Made by a program: the position numbers and the translations under genes. The notes beneath the pieces are model-generated. The model made no database searches, was not told where the DNA came from, and was given only the letters and a program-made list of their open reading frames with translations. Below are positions 52,614 through 55,336 of a DNA stretch of 64,000 nt, one piece after another. This DNA is from Chrysomallon squamiferum (lineage: Eukaryota; Animalia; Mollusca): NCBI GenBank assembly GCA_012295275.1, contig CM022670.1, forward strand, positions 39,432,001-39,496,000, in the 5' to 3' direction. Position 1 is the stretch's first letter; each line of letters begins with the position of its first letter.

Positions 52614-55336
52614 ACACACTTTGACACACATACACGCACACAATCACATAACCACATACACAGTGAAAATCACTATAACAACATTTCCGTGAAATGAAAA
52701 AAACATGCCTCTTCTCTTAGAGATTACTTTCGTTTTTTTTTTTTTTTTAAACTAATACAAGTTTAAGCATAACCAAGAATTTAATTTTGATGAGCTTTAA
52801 ATATATAGTAAATTATCATATACTTCAGATTGTTTAATCTACGTGTGTTGAAATATATAGATCTACATTAATTAATTTTATCCTTGAACTAGTGTTTTCT
52901 TCTCTTTTTCTATTCAGCCTGTAGTTATAGTCGTGGACGAGTACAAAGAACACTCTGATGCAGAAAAACGTTCATTGCCAAAAGTTGGCGACAGCAATGA
53001 GTTACCTCCCATTTCTGGGCCTGTACTTCCGGCACAACAGCCGATGGCTACGTCATTTTTTCAACGTCCAAATTCCAGCGTTTCCGACCAGTCTTCACTT
53101 TTAAGTTATGGTTTGAACAAGGACAAACTCTACTTAAATAAAGCACAAAAGAGTACGTTGATAATAGAACATAAATAATTGCAAAAAAGTTTGAACAACT
53201 TTACAATCTTTCAACATTTTAAAATACAACATTTAACTTGATTTTTAACTGTTAACAAATTATAACGATCATTCACTAACATTCTGTAACTTTTTATTTT
53301 TTTTTATTTATTTATTCATTCTTTTATTTATTATAAATAAACGCGTTAAACTATAAAGAATGCCGCCATTTTACTGGAAAAGGCTGACGAATTGCGGATA
53401 CATTTGTTTCCAGGTCACATCCACTGGTTCAAAACAGACTATAACGGTGGCCCCGAACGACGCTTTGATAAAAATATTGATAACCAGCAGGTACTTGTAT
53501 CATCATTTCTTTTCAAGCAGTACTTTAAACACATAGCGTATCTTTAAACACTTATAACAGAATACACACCTCACACGTGGTACAAATACAGGTCGTAGTA
53601 CGTGCTCTCCTGATTTTCACTGCTAATTTGCATCCCTGTGTGGACCTTAATCTCTGGGTGACCATAAATAAAATGGGTGGCTGGAAAAAATAGTCACAGA
53701 AATTGAGTCACAATTCAGTATAGGAGAAACAATCACAGGAAAAAAGTCACGAAATGTTTGCATTTGTAGAGTACTGAATTTGGCATCATAGTTTGCATGG
53801 GATAATTGTTAAGCTTACTGAATAGGCTAGATTAAAGAAAGAGGTTTCATACTGTGCAAGGGTGGTGACTTGTTACACTTATTAATTAGGATCAATTAGG
53901 CAGTAATAGGTCTAACTTACTGATTAGGATAGATTTAAACTAAGGGCTTCCTATTGTAAATGATTTATAAAATATCACAGGTTATATTATATGTGTTTCA
54001 CTATAAATTCTCCAGCTTGCTCAAGTATCAGACGTATATTTAATATGGAAGCTATTCACAGCAATAAGGCTGGTAACAAAATCTGTTAAGAGAGGTTCAT
54101 GTACCTGTGACGATTTGCAACTCGCAAAACAAAGTCGTGGATGGAAATGCATCAAAAGATCTAGCTGTAATTGGCAGAATTCCTTCGTGGTATTGGGTGG
54201 AACAATCCGCCTAAACCACCAACATTGAAAAAATCAAAGAACATTAATATTATATTTCTTAATCTTAATTAAAAATTGTGCATCCCCCCCCCTAGAATCG
54301 AATGCGATGTTATATAAAACATATTCTACATACATACATACTTACAGATAATATCCGAGCTCATCCCGGGACCTCATCACAATGTGCCGGCTGTGAGGCG
54401 TGTCCCGCCAGTTCTGCCCCCAGTGACAAGGAGAGAATTCAAGAAGGATCCAGCCAACTCTCCGATACGCTACACGAACAGGTCACGACACATAGACGTG
54501 CTGTCCATGGACGAATGGAGACTACGAAAGCTCCTAGAGGAGCTGTATAAGGACAAGAAGTACATGGACGGGCTCCTTCAACAACAAGGTATCATCCACA
54601 CAAAAAAAAAAAAAAAAAAAAAACAATTAATTATTTTACTTATTAATGACAGGTACCGGGCCAATTATCCGACGTCAATTTTCTTTATGTTTTTAATTTT
54701 AAAATGTTTATGCCTAATTATTTACCTATTTAGATGCCTTGGTACCGGAAAACCGAAATACCTCAGGGCCTCAAAGAATGGGGATAATTGGTCCGGTACC
54801 TGTATAAGAATAATAAAGTAGAATCGTTTGTTTTTGAAAAGTGTGTGCGTACCTATGTCTGCTGCATGCTGTGAAAAAGAGAGATAAGGTAAACGAGATA
54901 GGTAAACACTGACTGCACGCACCAATATGTATTGCAGTCGGATCAGGATCATCGTTTCTGCTTTATACAGAAGAGATCAGCAGCATTACTCACATCAGTA
55001 CTATTATAAATACTAAGATTTTGCATCGTACCTTGAAAGTAAGTCCACAAATTTGCTGTCTACGAAATTTCAACAACTATATTTTTGTCCTTTTCTTTTC
55101 GTTTTTTATCAGACAAACCTCCTGAAGTAAAAGAACTGGCTCATTACGGACGTGATTACCTCCTTCAACTTGCCGATTTCTGGGATTCTAAAGGCGTCCA
55201 TCCTCCACCTCCGCAAGAATCGAACTCACGACTCCAGCCACCTCCAGAACGTTCGAGAACGTCCATGAGTCTCAACGGACAGAAAAAAGACGACAAAACT
55301 CGACCAACATTAGAACGAAACAAAACTGTATCTTAG
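38834..55336 (+). CDS. Uncharacterised type I single-pass membrane protein (~1045 aa): signal peptide, Cys-rich ectodomain, Thr stalk, TM, ~700-aa charged cytoplasmic tail (copy A)
   Basis: 23 phase-consistent GT-AG exons: 38834-38891, 39397-39595, 40455-40564, 40864-40968, 41367-41528, 42346-42446, 45882-46002, 46434-46442, 46925-47155, 47548-47732, 48270-48332, 48647-48733, 49250-49381, 49683-49988, 50537-50656, 51086-51154, 51607-51675, 52014-52091, 52364-52519, 52918-53152, 53414-53490, 54348-54588, 55113-55336 (sum 3138 nt, no internal stop). Signal [19 protein letters not shown]; ectodomain [48 protein letters not shown] followed by RFRRKK. Confidence 0.85.
39864..40067. mobile_element. 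Mariner-derived fold-back MITE
   Basis: Follows TA; imperfect mariner-type TIRs TTGGGTTGAGTAATAAGTCATTGTGGTT / AACCGCAATGATTTATTCCTCAAC. An internal perfect ~30-bp inverted repeat (39906-39935 / 39960-39989) reads [12 protein letters not shown], like the mariner transposase C-terminus (FY..GI.KL..RW). Absent from the same intron of the paralog. Confidence 0.75.
44762..44922. repeat. AT-rich minisatellite, ~37-40-bp unit x4
   Basis: TTTTAAATAGATAAATGATTATTTATTCCTTTTAATA-like unit repeated in tandem. Confidence 0.8.
46040..46280. repeat. (TATG)n/(TG)n microsatellite
   Basis: Seen directly; the MYVC ORFs are artefacts. Confidence 0.9.
50772..50955 (+). mobile_element. tRNA-derived SINE (intronic)
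   Basis: Pol III A-box TGGTCAAACGG (50779-50789), B-box GTTCGAGTC (50833-50841), a GC-rich body and a (TACA)n 3' tail. No clean tRNA cloverleaf. Confidence 0.7.

Follow-up and report, generated by a model that had tools for sequence, protein, structure and literature searches.

A mollusc family of predicted membrane proteins ends in a module homologous to the inter-TPR segment of ODAD4

In a 64,000-nucleotide stretch of the Chrysomallon squamiferum genome (hereafter the window), we found a gene for a predicted single-pass membrane protein whose cytoplasmic tail carries a C-terminal module of about 50 residues that is almost certainly homologous to residues 183-254 of ODAD4 (TTC25), a subunit of the ciliary docking complex. 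We tentatively propose, from sequence comparison, that this surface protein carries a segment taken over from ODAD4 before the split between snails and clams, and that the segment would still bind its original partner and so tie the membrane to the axoneme.

The gene model runs from 38834 to 55336 on the forward strand. Its 23 exons contribute 3138 bases that encode 1045 aa with a single stop, all introns are of the GT...AG kind, and the window as a whole has the composition of AT-rich animal DNA (GC 0.26-0.35 per 4 kb). A sequence-only reading of this DNA had implied 23 exons, which is the number reached by the in-frame chain from the signal-peptide exon through the membrane-helix exon; the two peptides that it quoted could be located on the forward strand (the first motif at 54531, the second at 55127-55183), in exons that are joined in frame. 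The parts of the gene are as follows.

38834..38891, + strand: exon 1, with the start codon and a predicted signal peptide (aa 1-19); hydrophobic N-terminus, GT donor
39397..46442, + strand: exons 2-8, Cys-rich ectodomain spanning aa 20-288, with homology to the ectodomain that carries DUF7042 in mollusc relatives
46925..47155, + strand: exon 9, a stalk rich in Thr, followed by the one membrane helix (aa 312-336, at about 46993-47067) and a basic stop-transfer stretch
47548..53490, + strand: exons 10-21, charged cytoplasmic tail of about 530 residues, low in hydrophobicity, with a small number of short conserved motifs; introns of 261-548 bases
54348..54588, + strand: exon 22, in which the ODAD4-like module opens with its predicted first helix (about 54510 onwards)
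54589..55112, + strand: intron 22, a phase-1 AG/GT intron of 524 bases within the module, eight codons past the DKKY motif
55113..55336, + strand: exon 23, which carries the module's predicted second helix as far as 55183, a Pro-rich stretch, the C-terminus and the stop

In this sequence model, the protein has the features of a type I single-pass protein: a signal peptide, called by reading the hydrophobic N-terminus without a predictor program, one membrane helix (hydropathy peak 3.5), and basic residues behind it. The label "receptor" is one that we infer from this layout of signal peptide, ectodomain and membrane helix. Behind the helix, 44-49% of the residues between aa 337 and 735 are D, E, K or R, and the charged tail is predicted to reach about 600 residues in total. 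The acceptor of exon 21 (53414) was placed by comparison with Gigantopelta proteins. The module falls at approximately aa 946-995, in the C-terminal region of the model.

The neighbourhood holds a second copy of exons 1-5 (61541-64000, + strand), open for 201 codons and 97% identical in DNA, which runs off the end of the window; relative to the first copy, 14 residues are changed and 2 codons differ silently (pN 0.032, pS 0.015, Fisher p 0.39). Just upstream of it lies a degraded copy (61140-61257, + strand; 83% over 120 bases) of the stretch where intron 20 passes into exon 21. Near-identical DNA in one sequencing run (X1) formed several distinct contigs over exons 2-3 and single ones over exons 20-23, a weak hint that the ectodomain exons exist in more copies than the tail exons. 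Among the differences listed for that run over 52918-54588 (40 of 139), exon 20 had at least four changed and at least two silent, and exons 21-22 had at least one changed (outside the module) and at least three silent. Between the gene copies sits an isolated fibronectin type III exon that closes with a stop codon (58557-58855, + strand; Pfam fn3, E 5.7e-7), whose best PDB match was pikachurin (E 1.7e-5) and for which no parent gene was found. A long satellite of short units occupies 59560-61100, and pieces of high-copy repeats lie in intron 21 (53740-54300) and intron 22 (54670-54780). Upstream of the gene, the translations show an asparagine synthetase domain encoded on the + strand (about 9680-14900; Pfam Asn_synthase match). 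On the reverse strand we read, at 5946-7712, what we take to be a single exon of BTB-kelch type, at about 22300-29300 a kinase resembling STK11/LKB1, and at about 32000-36000 small exons of Ly6 type.

The homology of the module is carried by a profile, A2, which was built from 20 mollusc homolog stretches plus window exons 22 and 23 and contains no ODAD4 row. Searched against 177,635 PDB sequences at E<=10, A2 returned three matches, all of them ODAD4, at residues 183-254 (E 1.3e-8, 1.3e-7 and 1.8e-7). Searched against 5.8 billion sequences, of which 7993 candidates were scored, it recovered only two TTC25 proteins, both from scallops (E 1.3e-8 and 1.5e-7). These scored 52.5 and 48.5 bits, and 1000 local (block) shuffles of each reached a maximum of 7.4. 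A profile-profile comparison of the module with TTC25 by hhalign gave a probability of 97.2 and an E-value of 2.9e-11 over 64 columns. A narrower profile, made of the last 140 residues of four Gigantopelta proteins and the window exons, also found three PDB matches at E<=10, again all ODAD4 (best E 0.0089). When residues 1-500 of scallop TTC25 were compared with the family proteins and the window model, the only match lay at about 200-275, between the TPR clusters. The likeness to the inter-TPR segment of ODAD4 that the sequence-only reading had claimed is significant at the profile level (E 1.3e-8) and limited to that segment. The spliced window model by itself matched scallop TTC25 weakly (12-13 bits), with a local score of 90 that was above all 200 shuffles (maxima 68 and 62).

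Less focused queries did not reach ODAD4. Exon 22 alone found nothing in the PDB at E<=10, two single proteins (P0002, a full protein from Gigantopelta, and P0043) missed ODAD4 there, and it was absent from the 33 PDB matches of a full-length family profile at E<=5, which were mostly membrane helices. We attribute these misses of the single-sequence and full-length-profile searches to the module being so short and the tail so biased in composition. An apparent extension of the match to ODAD4 residues 105-182 was dropped: the gain was some 2 bits, and the comparison with scallop TTC25 did not show it. Pfam found no TPR family in 13 exon stretches of the window gene or in the motif-bearing homologs, and in these alignments the resemblance is confined to the non-TPR, inter-TPR part of ODAD4. 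Within the module, 18 positions reach a conservation of 80% or more among 64 family proteins. At 13 of these, both scallop TTC25 proteins have the same residue, and five differ; several columns in this comparison belonged to the pattern used to select the proteins. The residues common to module and TTC25 are largely hydrophobic, and the 13 shared positions include the charged residues E, E, D and K.

Relatives of the window protein are widespread in molluscs. A search with exon 22 found four Gigantopelta aegis proteins of 382-629 aa (E 7e-19 to 7e-16), the longest of which (LOC121389246) is colinear with the window tail from aa 466 on (46% identity over 614 columns). The narrow profile found 25 matches among 1.84 billion representatives at E<=0.001; 24 carried the motif whole or in part, none was ODAD4, and those for which a species name could be looked up came from gastropods and bivalves. 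One candidate, P0025, was rejected as a family member, being an unrelated TPR-rich protein without the motif. A2 matched 57 of the 5.8 billion sequences: 46 had a species name, all gastropods or bivalves, and 11 had none; with TTC25 set aside, the named matches were still gastropods or bivalves in 44 of 44 cases. Altogether, 65 non-TTC25 proteins among the 75 collected have the whole module. The sequence-only reading had suggested looking for the same membrane-protein layout in related species, and an aligning ectodomain, a membrane helix and the module do occur together in 31 of 56 species-named proteins, from 24 of 30 named mollusc species, and in none of the nine proteins without a species name. 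The other 25 named proteins, including all four from Gigantopelta, do not have ectodomain and membrane helix as annotated; P0068 from Plakobranchus has the ectodomain and falls narrowly under the hydropathy cut for the helix. On one genomic contig (L003), exons for ectodomain, membrane helix, tail and module follow one another in order within 7 kb. Because the combined layout is found in 24 of 30 species and on this contig, we regard it on sequence grounds as a trait of the family, not an artefact of one window, and the predicted capture as common to gastropods and bivalves rather than peculiar to the window species.

An alignment of 20 full-length family members has 14 invariant columns, 12 of them inside the module; this conservation is inflated by the use of the module to gather the family. 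In a module tree (48/76 sequences, no usable root) the window protein groups with the four Gigantopelta proteins with support 100/100; the deeper forks of the trees are weak and long branches meet at TTC25, the second tree being a quick version with 26 sequences. In 42 of 63 family proteins, which are related rows, the third-last residue is Ser or Thr, against a local background of 0.17; we take this to be a class I PDZ-ligand-like pattern. The window protein itself ends in Ser (55325-55336), which is atypical for a class I PDZ-binding end. Several relatives (Haliotis rufescens LOC124148097, Mizuhopecten LOC110457532, Lottia LOTGIDRAFT_228689) are uncharacterised and annotated without function. 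Searches of openly accessible paper texts found nothing on the family, on DUF7042, on the identifiers of six relatives or on any membrane protein with a segment like that of ODAD4. The family and its homology to ODAD4 are apparently undescribed; domain capture as such and both donors are already known.

The ectodomain can be followed in the same relatives. The spliced window ectodomain aligns to theirs by BLASTP (best E 2.7e-27), and 12 of its 14 cysteines are the consensus among 26 full-length rows. The relatives' ectodomains match Pfam DUF7042 (PF23069) above its cut-off of 27 bits (P0012 33.1, P0020 34.2, P0043 35.8), with weak matches to DUF7043/DUF7044. The window exons, scanned against Pfam one by one and unspliced, gave no match to DUF7042, and no homolog came up when exon 2 was used as the query. 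The ectodomain might be APCDD1-like; no APCDD1 chain was among the 33 PDB matches of the full-length family profile at E<=5.

AlphaFold placed helices at positions 9-33, 38-62 and 73-82 of the isolated module (pTM 0.34). Fold searches with this model returned nothing from Foldseek and nothing from VIA-align at Z>=5, and feature searches of the ESM Atlas gave no usable match. A model of scallop TTC25 made from a two-row alignment had pLDDT below 50 over its N-terminal half and the module, and a fold search with it reported only the C-terminal TPRs. The phase-1 intron eight codons after DKKY is found in the same place in the window gene and in two mollusc-type loci (L001 and L002); on L003 the best donor lies three codons earlier. 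Counted from the alignment, the window intron would correspond to codon 209 (c.625/626) of human ODAD4. A metagenome scan found no TTC25 genomic loci. The available text of one paper places c.704 of human ODAD4 in exon 6 (PMC11344339), and no exon boundary within the segment is given in the available parts of two others (PMC13703574, PMC12468610).

The segment's setting in ODAD4 is the docking complex. According to the portion of the bovine cryo-EM study available to us (PMC8595878), the complex is pentameric, with TTC25 on protofilaments A07-A08 at a 24-nm period; the TPRs of TTC25 and the repeats of ARMC4 bridge neighbouring CCDC114/151 coils, ARMC4 is the main dynein-binding subunit, and TTC25 was built for residues 12-129 and 185-258 only; the passages covered name no contact of 185-258. 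The copied span matches the second built stretch, and would therefore be one ordered working unit of the docking complex. Earlier work cited in the accessible part of PMC10139691 has TTC25 arriving in cilia independently of the other docking subunits and interacting with IFT complexes; the accessible part of PMC10266980 contains no mention of ODAD4.

Most probably, in our view, a stretch of the ODAD4 gene with the segment was added at the 3' end of a gene for a DUF7042 membrane protein, at a time before the divergence of gastropods and bivalves, and the module would then have been strongly constrained while the rest of the tail drifted. The direction from ODAD4 to the membrane family is likely, because ODAD4 of vertebrates and scallops carries the segment and all 44 named non-TTC25 matches are gastropod or bivalve proteins. 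In cilia or sperm, the long flexible tail could link the surface protein with the docking complex or with the route by which that complex is transported; candidate partners would be ARMC4, the CCDC114/151 coil, the N-terminal TPRs of TTC25, tubulin and IFT proteins. That 13 of 18 conserved positions are identical to TTC25, despite the lack of TPRs in the family, fits a retained binding surface or a retained core, and we hold a retained ODAD4 partner with a ciliary role for the module to be possible, if somewhat short of an even chance.

Ranked nearly as likely is a new job for the module. Origin and layout would be the same, and the module would now serve as a helical hairpin that packs with tail motifs, in self-association, or in binding a non-ciliary cytoplasmic partner. 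The five family-conserved positions that are unlike TTC25 may reflect a new partner, and the shared hydrophobic residues could do no more than maintain the core of the hairpin. The tail has further conserved, helical-looking motifs and, in 42 of 63 proteins, the PDZ-ligand-like C-terminus, and we found no link between the DUF7042 ectodomain and cilia. Also against a tether, the species still needs an ODAD4 of its own, and an extra copy of the segment might act as a competitor in docking instead of a link to the membrane. However, the charged residues E, E, D and K among the shared positions would not be needed by the core alone, and the copied span fits the segment that is ordered in the docking complex.

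A second alternative, which we consider unlikely, is that in the window species the tail exons mainly make a separate soluble protein from their own promoter or gene, with the link to the membrane exon minor or absent. The four Gigantopelta models (LOC121368545-7 and LOC121389246) have no ectodomain or membrane helix and begin at or after window exon 12. Short module-bearing forms without a membrane helix also occur in two abalone species (P0005, P0052) and in scallop-type proteins (P0027, P0036, P0037, P0057, P0064), with starts that match between species and lengths of 275-327 aa in the scallop forms. These paralogs may be real soluble forms; for the forms without a membrane helix in general, split annotation and real soluble versions are both possible. 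Three RNA-sequencing runs gave matches only to intronic repeats, in two stretches, a result that speaks for neither side. Against a separate gene, the frame is kept throughout exons 9-23, across introns of 261-857 bases; exon 10 has an open frame without an upstream in-frame Met, and exon 9 offers no plausible ending by itself; reading through its donor enters a CA repeat. The fused form occurs in 24 of 30 species, and the abalone long form has two RefSeq isoforms. We conclude from the exon chain that the membrane exon and the module exons very probably form one transcript and one protein.

It is quite improbable that the module predates both proteins, passed into ODAD4 from the membrane family, or belongs to a wider, unnoticed set of proteins. 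The large A2 search scored 7993 candidates and returned two TTC25 proteins only, the narrow profile missed ODAD4 at E<=0.001, and the module tree has no usable root, all of which leave room for such a history; yet the profile searches gave no named match beyond molluscs and ODAD4, and the segment is present in ODAD4 of mammals and scallops. Convergence of two amphipathic helices, which would account for the empty PDB searches with exon 22 and a full Gigantopelta protein, the missing ODAD4 among the 33 full-length-profile matches (E<=5) and the mere E of 0.009 from the narrow profile, is already largely refuted and hardly credible, given an E-value of 1.3e-8 from each of two independent collections, neither of which showed a match to another family, agreement in both helices and their order, and shuffles that reach at most 7.4 bits against 48-52.

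If the borrowed module does still bind docking-complex or IFT partners, the family would be a candidate membrane-to-axoneme linker, a structural class whose molecules are, to our knowledge, poorly known. Even with no ciliary role, the homology would offer a first handle on a mollusc-wide family annotated as uncharacterised. It also suggests that an unnamed module of the human ciliopathy protein ODAD4 is a separable, transplantable unit, nearly invariant across gastropods and bivalves in its other setting, and the residues common to both settings point to the important parts of ODAD4 183-254.

Compared with known systems, the window protein combines two donors. ODAD4/TTC25, represented by docking-complex structures 7RRO, 8J07 and 9CPC in the PDB, has the same two motif blocks in the same order, within a stretch of about 65-70 residues (183-254) between two TPR clusters; the spacer between the blocks is shorter in the window family than in TTC25 (anchor spacing 32 versus 39). 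The window protein stands outside the ODAD4 family because the TPRs are absent from it, and it has a signal peptide, an ectodomain and one strong membrane helix in the model, whereas scallop TTC25 has no membrane helix. The ectodomain aligns with that of the relatives positive for DUF7042 (PF23069) and shares their conserved cysteine pattern. Pfam covers only this ectodomain in the relatives; no Pfam family matches the tail or the ODAD4-like module, and these parts set the window protein and its relatives apart from what that domain describes.
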